In this document: positions 1-14,825 of the stretch, one piece after another
How the letters are laid out: each line of letters begins with the position of its first letter
How positions within the stretch are numbered: position 1 is the stretch's first letter
IMG/VR virus record: IMGVR_UViG_3300028045_000007
Span: 1 to 64,000 of that record
Length of the DNA stretch: 64,000 nucleotides
Reading direction: 5' to 3' (one strand)
DNA from: a virus
Notes under the pieces: generated by a model
Seen by the model: only the letters and a program-made list of their open reading frames with translations
Databases searched by the model: none
Told to the model about the DNA's origin: nothing
Translations under genes and position numbers: made by a program

Positions 1-160
1 TATTGTTTTCCTTTATCATGGGATCGATATGATCAATTTCAAGATCATCTTCGCTGCCGCACCAAACGCATGGGCCGTTTTCGTCGAACCATTCTTGACG
101 ACGACGAGCCATCCATTCCCGTTGATAGGCCCTTTGTTTTTCTTTGTCTTTGTATCCCAT
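1..160 (-). CDS. HNH endonuclease (runs off the left window edge)
   Basis: Manual translation from ATG at 160: MGYKDKEKQRAYQREWMARRRQEWFDENGPCVWCGSEDDLEIDHIDP; CxxC plus LEIDHIDP is typical of phage HNH proteins. Not in the ORF track. Confidence 0.85.
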   Translation of the reverse strand, partial: MGYKDKEKQRAYQREWMARRRQEWFDENGPCVWCGSEDDLEIDHIDPMIKENN

Positions 161-168
161 GATTGTAT

Positions 169-237
169 TGGGGTGGAGCAGGGATTTGCACCCTTCCATT
201 CGGGTCACAGCCGAATTACCCACTTTGGGAACTCCAC
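169..237 (-). tRNA. Atypical compact tRNA-His(GTG)-like gene
   Basis: Manual fold: acceptor GTGGAGT/GCTCCAC, discriminator C, encoded CCA, anticodon arm TTCGG-CTGTGAC-CCGAA, 3-nt D loop, 4-bp T stem with loop TGCAAAT. Confidence 0.65.
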
Positions 238-1300
238 AGTCCGTTTGCTGCCCTATCGCAGCGGTGTACGTGGAGGGCGGCTTACGTGTCCCCGCCCTCG
301 TTCAATACTCTCCACGTAGAGATCAAGCTTTTCACCTTGATATGAGCCTACGCTCTGTAATCAGTCACGTAGCTGTAGCCGCCATAAAAATCGCGAAACC
401 GTTAACTTCGCGTGCCGCCCCCCTAGCGGGGGAGTGCTCGGATATTTCTACACTACATTCTCATGACTTCCATACGCGGTGCCATGCCTAGGTCGGCTCT
501 CTGCATATGGCGTACTTCTGCCACGGCTTGCCAGCCGCAGCCCAAGTGATGGGTTGGTTTTTTCTTGATTGTACGTATCGCTTACTTAAACGTTATCTTC
601 AGCGATATGCAATCGTGGTCAGCATCCGTTTACCCATCCAAGCCTGCTTTCCGTGTATTTAGGGGGCTATCACAAGTTCTAACCCTGGTTGCTAGTGACC
701 GCCGATATGTGAAACACAATATACATGGTTAGGCGTCTGTGAACACGGTGATTAGCCGCTTCACTAGCTTCGTCTCTGTCGTTGCCTCTCGACTCCCAAC
801 AGCAGGACATAGTGTGTAGTTCATTCTGTGTTCCTTCTGGTGAAGCGATCAACTTCCCATAGGTCGCACGTAGCACTTTGAAAGCTTAGGACAATCGCCG
901 TACTACCCCTCGCGGGACATCTTCTCTTTTTCAAGATCAGATAGAGACGCTTCTGTCCTACACACGCTCGTTTTACTCATCTCAAAGAGATGGGCTTTCC
1001 TAAGATCACATTTTAAACAATGTTAGTTGCTTTTAGCCGTTACTTCGGTAAACGAATAAATCCGCCTTATTCCAAGCTGAATACCCACGGTGACACGTGG
1101 TCTCTTGCCTAAAACTTAATCGTGTGGTTCAGATGCGTCACCATCCTCGGTCACACTCGCCTGCCCAGTTCTCAACAAAACGGTGGACACCGCTCTATTG
1201 AAGACAAGCTTTTCTCTACCATGCGGCCCGCAGGCGACCGACTAACAGTCCTGGCCCAGCTAAAAGCACAGGATTTAGAATGTCCGGAGAACGCGGACAT
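238..1300 (-). ncRNA. Candidate large (~1.06 kb) structured ncRNA
   Basis: No credible ORF in an otherwise gene-dense genome, many hairpins, downstream of a promoter and between two CCA-ending tRNA-like elements. Confidence 0.55.
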
Positions 1301-1304
1301 ATGC

Positions 1305-1374
1305 TGGTGCGTCGGGCAGGTACTACCCCTGCTCCATTCCCTTACGGGATATGCCTTACTTACACTACCGACGC
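1305..1374 (-). ncRNA. tRNA-like RNA lacking an anticodon loop
   Basis: GCGTCGG-TA-GTGT-AAGTAAG-GCAT-A-TCCC-GTAA-GGGA-ATGGA-GCAGG-GGTAGTA-CCTGC-CCGACGC-A-CCA: cloverleaf with perfect 7-bp acceptor, 5-bp T stem and CCA, but a GNRA tetraloop in the anticodon position. Confidence 0.7.
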
Positions 1375-1505
1375 ATGTTCCTTAGCGGCAGACGCTATGC
1401 GTCTCTGCCGCTATGATTGGTTCCGAGTTGTCAAAGAGAGGCGGCTGTGTTATGCCCTACCGCCTCGTCGGGCTCACCAGCGGCGTTTTCGCCTCCGGTA
1501 TGTAC

Positions 1506-1533
1506 ATTATACACTAGTTTCGGTGTTCGTCAA
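1506..1533 (-). promoter_or_regulatory. Sigma70-type promoter for the ncRNA unit
   Basis: TTGACG-N16-TATAAT. Confidence 0.75.
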
Positions 1534-1545
1534 CTTCTTTTCGAG

Positions 1546-1581
1546 AAAAAGTTGGGCTGGAGGCCACACAACCCCCAGCCC
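1546..1581 (-). terminator. Intrinsic terminator after rIIB
   Basis: GGGCTGG...CCAGCCC hairpin followed by AACTTTTT. Confidence 0.65.
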
Positions 1582-1603
1582 AGCGGAAACACACGGAGAA
1601 AGA

Positions 1604-2476
1604 TCAGTCGTCCTGGCACTCACCCTCGCACCAATAGTCACCACAATGCTCGCAGTAGTCTTCCGAGTCGCAGTCGTAGTCATCGTCGTCCTGACCTAGA
1701 ACGCAGGGCATCGATTCTCCGATGGATACCTCGGAGCGATAGACGGGCTCCTCGATCAACTTCTCGCACTCCTCGACCACTTCGTACTTGCAAACACGCA
1801 ATTTGGAGCAAGAGCAGTCGAGCGGCACGCTGACAGCATCAGCGGGATTAACTTTAACGAGAACGACTCGACCGTCACTGCCAGCCCAGTCGGTTGCGTA
1901 GCGGTGGGTGCCAACGTGGAACCCATATGAGCAGCCAACGCTATGGTCATCGTTGACCTTGTTGCGAGGCATTTCATTAATGACTCCCACGCTATTGTCG
2001 AATCTGCCAGTGTGCTTGTCTTTCCATTCGGCGGAGATGCCCTTGTAGGCAATGAAGCATCCATCCTCGGTGACGGGGAAGTTGCCGTGTTCCAGGAATC
2101 TGTAAAGCTCATTGACGGCACGTCCGCTCGGATTTGCCATAAGCTTTTCCAGGAAGAGAGCCAGCGGAGCGTAGTCCTCGCCGTTTCGCATGAACTCGCC
2201 AATGCGGTCTGCGAGCACGTTGTTGATCTGCTCTCCATTCCAGAAGACCTCACCATACGGATTAACAGTAATGCCATTCAGTTCGCGTTCTATCGTAGTG
2301 GCAGGATTGAGCAGATCGTCGAGCCGATCGTAGCCAGACTTGTTGGACAAGATACTTGCAATCGGACCATAGTTCGGATGGGTGAGACCAAGCGAGTGGG
2401 TCTGACCGTTCCAGACCAGATTGATGTTGCCGTCAGCAGTGGTGATGTACGTGGGCTTTTTCTTTTTCCAGAACAT
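1604..2476 (-). CDS. rIIB: rIIB-like protein
   Basis: Motifs ANPS...ELYRFL, TEDGCFIAYK, MPRNKV..D...CSYGFH, VKVNPADAVSVP.D....KLRVCKYEV; adjacent to rIIA. Confidence 0.9.
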   Translation of the reverse strand: MFWKKKKPTYITTADGNINLVWNGQTHSLGLTHPNYGPIASILSNKSGYDRLDDLLNPATTIERELNGITVNPYGEVFWNGEQINNVLADRIGEFMRNGEDYAPLALFLEKLMANPSGRAVNELYRFLEHGNFPVTEDGCFIAYKGISAEWKDKHTGRFDNSVGVINEMPRNKVNDDHSVGCSYGFHVGTHRYATDWAGSDGRVVLVKVNPADAVSVPLDCSCSKLRVCKYEVVEECEKLIEEPVYRSEVSIGESMPCVLGQDDDDYDCDSEDYCEHCGDYWCEGECQDD

Positions 2477-2477
2477 A

Positions 2478-4409
2478 TTAGTTTTTCTCCTTGAGAGTGA
2501 TGTACTCAACAATGTCTGCCACGTTGACGTGACGAATTTGAATCTGCGAAAGTAGAGGATAACGTTCACGAAACAGTTCACAGTAATCAGGAGTGTCTGA
2601 TGGGTCGGGCACAACTAGATCGAACATCGCGAACATTGATTTAATAGTATTGCCGATGCGAGACGCTTTGGACATTGCTACCAAGTCGTCGCACACGGGC
2701 GACATATTCTTGATGGCATGGATGAGCATTGCCGGAAATGTGTAAGAGTCAAAGCTGTGTTGCATGCGACTCAGTTCGTACTTGGTCAGTAACGTTAGAC
2801 GCTTTTCTGCATACTTCTTTGCTTCGGTCTCGAAATCAGCCAGACCCAGTTTGTTACTGAGACGCTTGTAGTGCTTGTCGGCAATGCCGTAAACGGTATC
2901 GTATCCCATGGCTTGAGCAATTGCCAGGATTTCCCAAGCATTACGCTCTCTACCCTTGACCATGACGTTCCAACCAGTACGAGGTATGGCAATTGCTTTA
3001 GTGGTTTCTACCTTGTCTTCATCGACACGAGACCATTGATCCGCCTTGGAGCCACTGTATCCAGTAATGCTCTTAAAGAAGGAACGAGTGCCAGTGAACT
3101 TCTTTCGTTCACTCTGGGGAGCGTCGGGAAGCTCACTTATTCTGATGCTCGGCTCTCCGAACACCTGGGTGAAGCGAACCTCGTCCTCAACGTCGGCGAG
3201 GTACATGATGCCCTCTTGGGAACTCAACCAGTAGCGAAGCCGATTCTTGTAGGCTTGCGTCATCTTGACATCGCAGTGGACGATGACGTAATCAGTATAC
3301 TCGCTCGGCTGGAGCGATTCACGCCAGCGGTCTTGTCCGATGCAGAGCTTATTGCCCTTGAGCTTCATGCACTTGAGTTCGTACTTGCCCGATTCCTTAA
3401 TGGAAATGGATTTTTTTCCGGCGGGCAGGTCCCATACGTTACTGAAGCGTTGACGATTCCTGATCTCGGCCATGACACTAATGTCACCAGTCAGTTGTGC
3501 GTCAATCTTTACCTGAACGTCTTTCGATACCTTGTCCAGATGAGATTGAATATTGGCAATCGTGCGTTCGTTATAGTGAAGCTCCTCGCGGCTCACTGCA
3601 AAGTCACATTCGCCATTGTTAACAAACAAGATCAGGGCTCCACTCTGTCCCAGTTTGATCTTGAAGTGTTCCGTTGCCACAGTGTAGCGGACGTTACCCA
3701 TAACCACATTGATGCGGGAGGGAACACCAGCTTCTTGGCGATTGGAGTAAAGCTTGTAGTGAGCATGTTCGAAAAGAGGCTCGCACTCCTCGAATTCGAC
3801 GTTAGCCCCAGTGATCTTGGGACACATAGGCATAAATCGATACACCTTTTGTGCGGCACGCTGCCACTCGTACTCATCGCCAGCCTTGACTTGAACTGTG
3901 ATTTCAAGACCATTCGGTTCGTCAGTGGCATTGGTATCCATCAGGGCGATACGCGGCTCGCCAGTTTCGTTCCTATATGCGGAGTACGTATAGGAGGTAC
4001 CGTTCCAATAGGACGTTACCATGAACTGGTCCGTAAGAGCGAAGGGCGATTTCGAGCCCAAACCAAGGCGACCGATGAAATCGTCAGAATCACTCCTGGT
4101 GGACTCGAAGTACGTAGTGTAAACGTGCTTCACGTCTTCGGGCGAGAGTCCCGTGCCGTAGTCGCGGACCTTGAAAAAGGAAGCAAAGGAGTTGGGCATG
4201 TGAACATCGAAGGGCTTGTCGGTGGTGCCAGCTTCGACTTGAGCGTCATACGCATTGGTAGACAACTCTCTTACGACCGCAAGGATGGGGTCGGTGTACA
4301 GGCGGCTGGAGAGCACTTCGAAGGCGTGTGCGTTGGCCGCGATGGTGAAGTTGCTTTCGGAGAAGTCTCCCGACCGCTCGATGGTTCTGTCTTTAGTGTG
4401 TAGCTTCAT
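2478..4409 (-). CDS. rIIA: rIIA-like protein (N-terminal GHKL/Hsp90-like ATPase)
   Basis: LYTDPILAVVRELSTNAYDA, VRDYGTGL, GRLGLGSKSPF, SREELHY. Confidence 0.9.
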   Translation of the reverse strand: MKLHTKDRTIERSGDFSESNFTIAANAHAFEVLSSRLYTDPILAVVRELSTNAYDAQVEAGTTDKPFDVHMPNSFASFFKVRDYGTGLSPEDVKHVYTTYFESTRSDSDDFIGRLGLGSKSPFALTDQFMVTSYWNGTSYTYSAYRNETGEPRIALMDTNATDEPNGLEITVQVKAGDEYEWQRAAQKVYRFMPMCPKITGANVEFEECEPLFEHAHYKLYSNRQEAGVPSRINVVMGNVRYTVATEHFKIKLGQSGALILFVNNGECDFAVSREELHYNERTIANIQSHLDKVSKDVQVKIDAQLTGDISVMAEIRNRQRFSNVWDLPAGKKSISIKESGKYELKCMKLKGNKLCIGQDRWRESLQPSEYTDYVIVHCDVKMTQAYKNRLRYWLSSQEGIMYLADVEDEVRFTQVFGEPSIRISELPDAPQSERKKFTGTRSFFKSITGYSGSKADQWSRVDEDKVETTKAIAIPRTGWNVMVKGRERNAWEILAIAQAMGYDTVYGIADKHYKRLSNKLGLADFETEAKKYAEKRLTLLTKYELSRMQHSFDSYTFPAMLIHAIKNMSPVCDDLVAMSKASRIGNTIKSMFAMFDLVVPDPSDTPDYCELFRERYPLLSQIQIRHVNVADIVEYITLKEKN

Positions 4410-8640: not shown

Positions 8641-9551
8641 TACTGGTTAGCCATAAGCCACTGGGCAGCAGCGATCATCATGTAGATCATGGCGGCGGCA
8701 CTGCCAATACACAGAATTGCAGTAACGAGGAGCCAGACATTGAAGGTGCGGACAGCAGTCTTCATGGTTTGGTCGAAGTTTTGTTGCCGGGGTTCGAAGG
8801 GTTGGATTCGTCTACGCATTGGTTATTTTTTGAAGGGGCCGGATAAAGAATGGCGGCTGCAATGAGCCATCCTCCAGCGACCGGATGCTCATTCATAAGT
8901 AGGTAGGTGCCACAACCAAGAAACAGGAGTGGTGCGATGTTGTTGACTAACATGCCTTATTATACCACCGTTAAACGCTATGTCAACTCTTTTTCGAGAT
9001 CTTCCAACATCGAATCAACCAGAGCACACCTGTCCTCACGTTGCCATTCGTCAGCAATAGTTGTAGAGCCATCGGCGAGCCGACGAAGCATGGCATAGGC
9101 ACAAGGGATATTCCAGATGATATGTATTCCCTGTTCATTGTGGGGAGCCTCTGGATGCACGAAGTCCTCCATGCACTGCTCGAAGAGCATTCGGAGACCG
9201 TCGAGTTCACGTTTGGTTAGTTCCTGTATGGTCATTTTTGTGTCAGATATGATGTTCAATGTCACAGTGATGTATGCACTTTTTGTGACGTATAGAGCAC
9301 TGTTAAGCTATATCGCTTCACCTTCCTCTAAAACGATTTTGAGTTTGCCACCGGCATTATCACGTGGTTCGACACGCACGATTTTGTATCCTGTCAGACA
9401 GGTGTAGTAGTTGTAATTGCCACCACCGAAGACATCAAGGCTACCCTCCCAAAAGCGAAATTCTGGCGTAAATCCTTCCGTGCAAGTGACCTGTCCCGTG
9501 AAGCGTGTCAGTTCACATTGACATGAGGAATCCCAGTAGACGACGTAAGTT

Positions 9552-9686
9552 TTATTCATTTTCGAGTTCCTTAGCAAGTGCAATTGCCATATCCCAGCCC
9601 TTCTGAGTGGGCTCGAAACGAGCAAAGGGCGAGAAGTAAAACGTATTCTTGGCGAAGTGCGGATCGATCATTTCTGAGATCTTCAT
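9552..9686 (-). CDS. 44-aa leaderless ORF, paralog of the C-terminus of 10382..10720
   Basis: MKISEMIDPHFAKNTFYFSPFARFEPTQKGWDMAIALAKELENE versus IDPHFAKNTYYFSPFARFEPTEHGWTMA; own promoter ending in TATACT. Confidence 0.65.
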   Translation of the reverse strand: MKISEMIDPHFAKNTFYFSPFARFEPTQKGWDMAIALAKELENE

Positions 9687-9736
9687 GACTCAGTATACCT
9701 CACGCAGCGGACGGGGCAAGTCTTTTTCAAGCGAAG

Positions 9737-9928
9737 TTATTCTTTTTCGAGCGTTGCTCTCAGCACTCCCTCAATGATATGCTGCTGGAAACGAACATCA
9801 ATGCCTTTGCGGTAGAGGTCGTCTACGATCTGGCGGGCAGAGAAGTCGGAGTCCATGTCGGTGGTGGCAAGCACGTTGCTGGTGATGGCGGCGATCTTGG
9901 CCACGATACGTTCTAATTCAGGATTCAT
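9737..9928 (-). CDS. Small hypothetical protein ending LEKE
   Basis: ORF track; member of the LEKE series. Confidence 0.6.
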   Translation of the reverse strand: MNPELERIVAKIAAITSNVLATTDMDSDFSARQIVDDLYRKGIDVRFQQHIIEGVLRATLEKE

Positions 9929-9950
9929 TGTATCACACTTAGTGTCTAAG

Positions 9951-10166
9951 TCAAGGCAGAACCCTGACTTCTTCCATCTTGAACTCCACTATTTCAAGCT
10001 CACGCCAATGGCCCGAAATGCGTAGGCACCGCTTACAGTGCTTGAAAGCAACGGTGGTGATACCCAGCGTTCCGTAGATGTCGCCAATGGGGCCGAAGGA
10101 GTGTTTACCTTTGGACTTATACTCTCCGGTGGCCTTGTCCCTGATCTTGTACGCTAGGATGGTCAT
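9951..10166 (-). CDS. Small hypothetical protein
   Basis: Starts at the ATG of a junction repeat. Confidence 0.65.
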   Translation of the reverse strand: MTILAYKIRDKATGEYKSKGKHSFGPIGDIYGTLGITTVAFKHCKRCLRISGHWRELEIVEFKMEEVRVLP

Positions 10167-11894: not shown

Positions 11895-11971
11895 CGCGGG
11901 GTAGAGCAGTCAGGCAGCTCGTCAGACCCATAATCTGGAGGTCGCTGGTTCGAATCCAGCTCCCGCTACCA
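11895..11971 (+). tRNA. tRNA-Met(CAT), initiator-like with altered anticodon arm
   Basis: CGCGGGGTAGAGCAG...GGTTCGAATCC...TCCCGCTACCA; unpaired C1/T72; anticodon arm TCAGA-CCCATAA-TCTGG. Confidence 0.92.
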
Positions 11972-14630: not shown

Positions 14631-14825
14631 GGGGGGATAGCTCAATTGGTTAGAGCGGGTCGCCGCAAGGCGATGTCCTCAAGTCTTAGCCAGACTGTCG
14701 CACGGTTAGCTCCCGTGACGCATAGGAAAGCACCGGGGGGTTGCTCCCCTGAGAGACGAACAGGAATACAATATAACTCGAGGTTATTGTATCGGTTGCA
14801 GGTTCGAACCCTGCTCACCCCACCA
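14631..14825 (+). ncRNA. tRNA-shaped RNA with a ~135-nt structured insert replacing the anticodon arm
   Basis: 5' GGGGGGA-TA-GCTCAATTGGTTAGAGC; 3' GCAGG-TTCGAAC-CCTGC-TCACCCC-A-CCA; promoter TTGACT-N16-TATACT at 14568-14595. Confidence 0.8.

Follow-up and report, generated by a model that had tools for sequence, protein, structure and literature searches.

The window analysed here, 64,000 nucleotides (nt) long, is the first 64 kilobases (kb) of a phage record of 154,408 base pairs (bp) and of seawater origin in IMG/VR (IMGVR_UViG_3300028045_000007). Near its start, on the minus strand, a stretch of about 1.06 kb without a credible open reading frame (ORF) lies at 238-1304 between two elements that resemble transfer RNAs (tRNAs). 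This stretch holds a conserved, accumulating, structured RNA of about 620 nt (1286 to 667), recognised from contigs of RNA libraries, from a homologue and from the pairing that the two sequences share. It is best understood, with a probability of roughly 0.8, as a discrete large structured non-coding RNA of the phage tRNA operon, cut and trimmed to about 620 nt and belonging to a new two-member family of the GOLLD and ROOL kind. A sequence-only reading of the same DNA had described a promoter, leader hairpins, a tRNA-like element without an anticodon, about 1.06 kb lacking a credible ORF, a tRNA-His-like element and an HNH gene, all of which are present in the sequence, and had proposed that processing at the two tRNA-like elements releases an RNA of about 1 kb. 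That proposal is partly supported: the observation was largely right, and the interpretation was right in kind and wrong in the size of the RNA and in the 'punctuation' role given to the tRNA-like elements.

Seven public sequencing runs contain words of the stretch, and four of these are marine metatranscriptomes from one 2016 study, in each of which about 0.4-0.44 of the stretch's words occur. Two of the four, here called X2 and X4, were compared with window positions 1-3000. The X2 contig corresponds to 667-1286 (depth 133) and the X4 contig to 683-1286 (depth 58), both with 100% identity, and Illumina adapter lies flush with base 1286 in both runs and flush with base 667 in X2. The contigs have no cover on rIIB, the tRNA-like elements or 666-238, which in contig data is not proof of absence. 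Low-depth DNA contigs from two other studies span both RNA ends, so the DNA is continuous at 1286 and at 667, and the contig pattern agrees with an abundant, discrete molecule whose ends are fixed. A large discrete structured RNA on the minus strand beside phage tRNA genes, present as a species of its own in these RNA-library contig data, had been correctly anticipated; its size of about 1 kb had not, since the contigs give 620 nt. Blastn searches with 150-1600 and 667-1286 against phage and plasmid records gave no match.

The homologue, which no DNA search with the 620-nt piece had revealed, was recovered through a false protein. An exhaustive phmmer search that started from an accidental 68-codon frame (885-682) gave P0001, with 80% identity across 55 residues (E 6e-20). 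P0001 is a spurious gene prediction on L138, a Logan contig of 1350 nt. With nhmmer, L138 positions 7-640 align to window 1272-650 (2.6e-87, about 70% identity). L138 has no credible ORF, and its copy of the RNA starts at the contig end, with the 5' flank out of view. At the other side the homology extends 15 nt beyond the RNA 3' end (GAUAG closing the RNA, CCCC..UACACG following it) and then stops. This conserved 3' trailer (666-652, CCCC..A.UACACG, alignment columns 644-658) is 73% identical, and two base pairs of the last helix (703-692/676-665) are formed by its two leading C with GG 703-702. The RNA 3' end lies two base pairs inside that helix, and a 13-nt 5' tail starts at 1286. The homology block was found independently of the RNA species, and the two cover almost the same interval. 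A tRNA-like element is also present on L138 (785-861, Rfam tRNA 29.7 bits), 145 nt downstream of the RNA copy; its T loop (CGAAAAC) is odd, its anticodon loop is oversized, and its T stem, GCAGG/CCUGC, is common to it and the first tRNA-like element of the window.

Release of a single RNA of about 1.06 kb, cut whole at the two tRNA-like elements to give ends near 1304 and 238, has points in its favour. Processing signals of tRNA-like form are an established mechanism, both elements keep perfect stems and an encoded CCA, the first is conserved in relatives, and the observed 5' end at 1286 is merely 18 nt past the CCA of that first element. The contigs, however, end at 1286 and 667, in X2 with adapter attached at 667, which leaves 666-238 uncovered and places the 3' end 430 nt ahead of the tRNA-His-like element. 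Homology to L138 ends at about 650, and no homologue or unusual folding was found for 666-238 (minimum free energy, MFE, z = -1.0 for 666-385). A terminator-like hairpin (412-392) lies within the non-conserved, ORF-free spacer at 651-263 on the minus strand, which has no homologue in L138, in the syntenic relative L109 or in any locus. The longer product is very unlikely, and the tRNA-like elements do not mark the ends of the RNA that is seen.

Shared pairing and the invariant centre

The conserved, covarying structure that the sequence-only reading called for is found in the comparison with L138. RNAalifold, given the window and L138, returns 152-155 pairs in 27 helices. Changes on both sides have occurred in 32 of the 152 shared pairs, about 25 more have changed compatibly on one side, and none is broken. 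In 60 column shuffles, kept within conservation classes and then refolded, 11.7+/-3 compensatory pairs were obtained (maximum 17), and the consensus energy was -104+/-7 kcal/mol against the observed -163 kcal/mol (z = -8.6). No partner shuffle out of 500 reached the observed value, and sliding the partners by 1-3 columns leaves only 1-7 compensatory pairs. At least one double change is present in each of 14 helices. For example, the hairpin CAUCUC-UUU-GAGAUG of the window is UGCUUC-GUAA-GAGGCA in L138, UCUU-GAAA-AAGA is UCCC-GAAA-GGGA, and AUAUUGUG-UUU-CACAUAU is AUAUCCC-UUCG-GGGUGU; an extra CCUC-UUCG-GAGG hairpin is present in L138. The first of these is one of six stems named earlier from the sequence, and it has both a place in the conserved RNA and compensatory support; the other five lie outside the conserved RNA. 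The consensus energy of the minus strand is -163 kcal/mol while that of the plus strand is -96 kcal/mol, and on the plus strand 49 G-U cells of the alignment become A-C. This places the RNA on the minus strand, in agreement with the promoter.

Positions 827-720 form a near-invariant core of 108 nt on the minus strand, 95.4% identical between the two members, in which the predicted helices never vary. Identity elsewhere in the RNA is 61% in the 5' third and 68% in the middle. Three long-range helices (1223-1216/732-724, 1038-1035/769-766 and 965-954/823-812) are invariant between the two members, and seven candidate pseudoknots or alternative stacks have two compensatory changes each. A terminal helix joining the RNA ends is not unusual, being equalled in 13% of random windows, and L138 does not keep it: there the 5' part folds into a local hairpin instead.

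The stretch is non-coding by the searches made. In 238-1304 the longest stop-free frame has 83 codons and the longest minus-strand ORF 65 amino acids, and the ten longest frames of the stretch have nothing meaningful in Pfam or PHROGs. All six frames, searched by tblastn against about 1 Mb of related loci, gave no match. Reading TAG as a sense codon, an idea taken from a CUA-anticodon tRNA of the phage, opened no credible ORF. A decayed protein gene, named by the sequence-only reading as a ground for refutation, was not found with Pfam, PHROGs or tblastn, and neither tRNA nor protein remnants were found in the stretch. A short frame of 31 codons (824-729) nevertheless has the same start and stop in the two members, is intact in each and nearly coincides with the invariant block; AAGGA lies 7 nt upstream of its ATG in the window. 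The core could on this account be conserved for a micropeptide, the 620-nt RNA being a stable small messenger or a dual-function RNA. Only five of the codons have changed, two synonymously and three non-synonymously (two of them to proline), and two synonymous changes in 31 codons compare with 32-39% divergence elsewhere. Synonymous sites of the core have changed as little as its other sites, which points to constraint on the RNA rather than on a peptide. The Shine-Dalgarno-like stretch is not kept in L138, no protein family matches, and the remaining 500 nt or so evolve in the compensatory manner of an RNA. A coding role for the core is unlikely, though the RNA may conceivably serve a dual function.

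Several points weigh against a discrete structured RNA of this kind. The RNA evidence is made up of assembled contigs of one study rather than raw reads, and such contigs do not prove the chemistry of the 5' and 3' ends, the strandedness of the library or transcription itself. The 5' end is oddly placed, at the junction of loop and 3' arm in a hairpin at 1300-1280. Only two members are known and the fold was derived from the same two sequences, so covariation does not bear on the helices of the invariant core or on any long-range helix. Folding of the single sequence is unremarkable, with an MFE z of about -2.1 for the 620-nt core while 15 other windows of the same genome give -0.7+/-1.4; taken over the whole region, the 'many stems' noted earlier are accordingly no more than chance would give. 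The invariant core is exactly where the intact 31-codon frame lies, together with what may be its Shine-Dalgarno sequence. The closest syntenic relatives (L109, which equals L111, and L112) do not have the RNA, which indicates that it is dispensable for that lineage.

Some of these points would also suit a functionless spacer or decayed tRNA-cluster DNA, with the RNA fragment as a by-product or library contaminant. All RNA runs are from the one study, contigs are not proof of transcription, and the syntenic relatives carry an unrelated 440-nt spacer instead. However, 152 intact pairs, 32 of them changed on both sides, at 70% identity are not what neutral DNA would retain, and neither is a 108-nt core at 95% identity. 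The homology block coincides with the RNA ends. Plasmid and vector records have no match to the RNA, and tRNA or protein remnants were not seen. Decay or contamination is hardly credible, and the discrete structured RNA of the tRNA operon is the reading followed below.

Comparison with known RNA families

All 4227 families of Rfam 15, searched at the gathering threshold and at E<=10, returned only a junk microRNA match, and an all-Rfam cmscan of 640-1310 (671 nt) with lax filters at E<=10 found no family. GOLLD, ROOL and group I introns, for which a search had been advised, were among the families scanned. GOLLD gave no match in the all-Rfam scans at either setting, and the ROOL model (RF03087) gave none at E<=10 in the whole phage record, where the controls gave none either. 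ROOL and GOLLD are large structured RNAs of phages and prophages, often near tRNA islands and sometimes very abundant, whose function is unknown; the ROOL model has 574 positions and many GOLLD RNAs exceed 800 nt (PMC12286853). The present RNA resembles them in its size of about 620 nt, its place in a phage tRNA operon, its abundance in metatranscriptomes, its many helices, and its conserved centre with a variable periphery. Its location is of the same type, between a tRNA-like element on one side and tRNA-His-like, tRNA-Tyr, tRNA(CUA) and tRNA-Gly genes on the other. It differs from both in having no sequence or structure match to them and in having two known members. GOLLD and ROOL were recently shown to form RNA-only cages. 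Beyond a length of about 400 nt, structured RNAs other than those of ribosomes, RNase P and introns are very rare. We lean towards an undescribed class of large, ornate phage RNA, about 620 nt long and built around the 108-nt invariant centre, in which no homology to GOLLD, to ROOL or to any other Rfam family is detectable. Between a divergent member of a known family and a 'new giant ncRNA class' (ncRNA being non-coding RNA), the two options offered earlier, the second is thus the better, as no Rfam family matches.

Other RNAs share parts of this description. Species 1 and 2 RNAs of phage T4 are co-transcribed with phage tRNAs, processed from a precursor and stable, and their function is unknown; they are about 120-140 nt long with tRNA-like processing, while the present RNA is about 620 nt long and has ends away from the tRNA-like structures. 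Transfer-messenger RNA (tmRNA), including permuted tmRNA (RF04321) in the relative L004, occupies the same niche downstream of rIIB among phage tRNA genes. As a candidate for the present stretch, one-piece or permuted tmRNA was rejected: there was no Rfam match, ARAGORN gave only low-threshold noise, the acceptor stem of the first tRNA-like element has G3-C70, and no tag-like reading frame with a hydrophobic tail was found in the stretch. Bacterial RNase P RNA (RF00010) was rejected as well, having no match at E<=10 in the whole record while the controls matched in 11 genomes; the ACGACAGA..GGCUAAUC arrangement, which we took to resemble CR-IV/V of RNase P, failed that same test.

Group I introns (RF00028) are of comparable size, and the present RNA has a 3'-terminal G and a nearby HNH gene. 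An excised self-splicing intron, or another self-processing ribozyme that makes its own discrete ends, would account for precise ends that lie at no obvious RNase E or terminator signal. In the folding model, helix 1223-1216/732-724 enclosing 1038-1035/769-766 and a hairpin may recall P3/P4/P6, and GUUCACAGAC and AUAU-C-GGCGGUC were presumed to be like the group I R and S elements, a likeness that failed the model test. Intron_gpI has no match at E<=10 in the phage's own genome, although the same search matched 8 control genomes, and no self-cleaving ribozyme family matches. Base 1287 is C, not the U of the U-G splice-site pair, and adapter directly follows 1286 with no untemplated G at the 5' end. 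Among the RNA and DNA contigs there is no joined form, no flanking host gene or tRNA halves serve as exons, and about 150 nt of hairpins stand where J3/4 belongs. A self-made origin of the ends is highly improbable, and a non-coding RNA trimmed within the tRNA operon accords better with these results.

Operon setting and relatives

Upstream of the ORF-free stretch, on the same strand, are rIIA (4451-2478), rIIB (2476-1604; PHROG 609, 2.6e-65) and a terminator downstream of rIIB (1582-1553). Directly after this terminator is a sigma-70-type promoter of the RNA/tRNA operon (1533-1506), with TTGACG, a 16-nt spacer and TATAAT, matching the consensus at 11 of 12 positions. Leader hairpins follow at 1500-1377 on the minus strand (MFE z = -4.6), including GCGGCAGAGACGCAUAGCGUCUGCCGC, which with its flanks (1437-1377) recurs unchanged in a distant relative; a 52-kb contig of another phage, L109 and L112 all carry window 1373-1437 in identical form. 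By nhmmer, window 1554-1298 corresponds to L109 4024-4264, where the promoter region precedes the same leader.

The first tRNA-like element (1374-1305, minus strand) has a cloverleaf fold with a 7-bp acceptor stem, A73 and CCA. Its T stem is the GCAGG/CCUGC already mentioned, its T loop is GGUAGUA, a GUAA tetraloop stands in for the anticodon loop, and the acceptor stem carries G3-C70 rather than G3-U70. ARAGORN at default settings makes no call on it, and there is no Rfam tRNA match at E<=10; it was rejected as a tRNA because it has no anticodon loop of seven bases and its D and T loops are not canonical. L109 keeps this element, with substitutions clustered in the D-like and anticodon-like arms and with pairing retained. 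The second element (237-169, minus strand) is a degenerate tRNA-His-like cloverleaf (z = -1.2) with the anticodon loop CUGUGAC, a 3-nt D loop, the T loop UGCAAAU and C73-CCA. Base -1 is U, so the element is without G-1. ARAGORN labels it tRNA-His(GUG) only at relaxed or mitochondrial settings, the Rfam tRNA model has no match at E<=10, and it was rejected as a canonical tRNA-His for want of a G-1:C73 pair and for the 3-nt D loop. At the syntenic position L109 carries a canonical tRNA-His whose anticodon loop is the same. A hairpin at 262-244 on the minus strand (GCUGC-GAUAGG-GCAGC; blastn of window 268-244 to L109 4671-4695, 88%) has a counterpart in L109 that sits ahead of the HNH gene and tRNA-His, and beyond the promoter, leader and first tRNA-like element no other piece is common to the two. 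Judged by these sequence comparisons, the tRNA-like 'brackets' are conserved operon furniture and the 1-kb insert is specific to the present phage.

The window begins within a free-standing HNH homing-endonuclease gene, of which the 5' part (160-1, minus strand; PHROG 4234, 1.7e-15) is cut by the contig end; the IMG/VR record thus ends inside this gene although it is rated '99% complete'. An ENA contig, L135 (168,638 bp), is 100% identical to the phage record and runs on beyond the window start, which means that the record is without at least part of the tRNA region. The complete HNH gene (154 amino acids) is at L135 6254-6718, followed by tRNA-Tyr, tRNA(CUA), an ORF, a long tRNA-Pro-like element and tRNA-Gly. 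With these tRNA genes after HNH, the ORF-free stretch is the head of the phage tRNA operon. The tRNA with the CUA anticodon (L135 7006-7079) is well formed (Rfam tRNA 60.6 bits, ARAGORN label 'Pyl') and is, from its sequence, a candidate amber suppressor in the same operon. Between tRNA genes at L135 6805-6939 and L111 6962-7091 is an ORF-free block of about 135 nt, 81% identical, in phages whose rIIB proteins are less than 50% identical; three of its pairs have changed in a compensatory way, Rfam has no match to it, and it probably represents a further small structured RNA of the operon. ARAGORN at default settings makes a sole tRNA call, tRNA-Met at 11895. At window 14631-14822 on the plus strand an Rfam tRNA match of 34.7 bits is spread over 192 nt, with an insert of about 120 nt between the arms and no ARAGORN call.

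A search with rIIB recovered 107 syntenic loci from viral and metagenome contigs, several of which have tRNA clusters right after rIIB (for example L030). Nhmmer and blastn against these loci and 5 whole related phage records gave no match to the stretch. In L004, a more distant phage of this set, an interrupted tRNA gene and a permuted tmRNA match lie downstream of rIIB (9040-9310 and 9563-10029); the tRNA gene has an intron-like insert of about 190 nt, and the tmRNA match (47.9 bits) is just above threshold. The leader motif recovered the closer relatives L109 (= L111) and L112, with rIIB 45-49% identical, which share the promoter, leader hairpin and tRNA-like element (nhmmer 8e-27). In L111 and L112 this module heads a nine-tRNA cluster, and in these relatives it is followed by the unrelated 440-nt ORF-free spacer, an HNH gene and the canonical tRNA-His. 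A further 715-nt ORF-free stretch lies between tRNA-His and tRNA-Gly in L109 (5238-5952; L111 6689-7403). It closes with a T-arm-like hairpin, a GGGGCCA strand and ACCA and may be a large tRNA-ended RNA; the present phage has a homologous end piece at L135 8081-8130, called a 98-nt tRNA-Pro by ARAGORN. Global alignment of the window spacer with the 440-nt and 715-nt stretches of L109 was not significant, and shared k-mers with L111 were not in excess. Pattern scans for leader, T-loop-like and core motifs gave L109 and L110 for the leader and otherwise chance matches only. A covariance model of the RNA, R1, run over about 1.06 Mb of loci and 5 further phage records, found the two known members only, and long complementarity of the stretch to the remaining phage genome was not found.

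Proposed biogenesis and significance

Transcription would start at the promoter (1533-1506) and pass through the leader, the non-decoding tRNA-like element (1374-1305) and the large RNA gene. The precursor may then be cut at the tRNA-like element by host tRNA-processing enzymes, RNase P and those of 3' processing, and the downstream RNA could be trimmed endo- and exonucleolytically to its folded body, from 1286 to 667. The species of about 620 nt accumulates far above its neighbours. The peripheral hairpins vary freely with their pairing kept, and 827-720 is presumed to be the working site. This centre could catalyse a reaction or bind a partner, and may be capable of self-processing or of assembly in the manner of ROOL and GOLLD; by analogy with those RNAs, the present one may form higher-order particles. 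It would act in trans during infection, most likely on tRNA or on the translation machinery.

The spurious 'proteins' of metagenomic gene catalogues, one of which led to L138, are usable to find homologues of orphan RNAs. The present RNA adds an example to a very short list of large structured phage RNAs and, if the reading is true, would be a new compact target with defined ends for cryo-electron microscopy and biochemistry. It would also be a third independent family of large RNAs in phage tRNA islands, one whose high abundance in the sea is directly evidenced, which would mean that this niche repeatedly breeds large RNAs.

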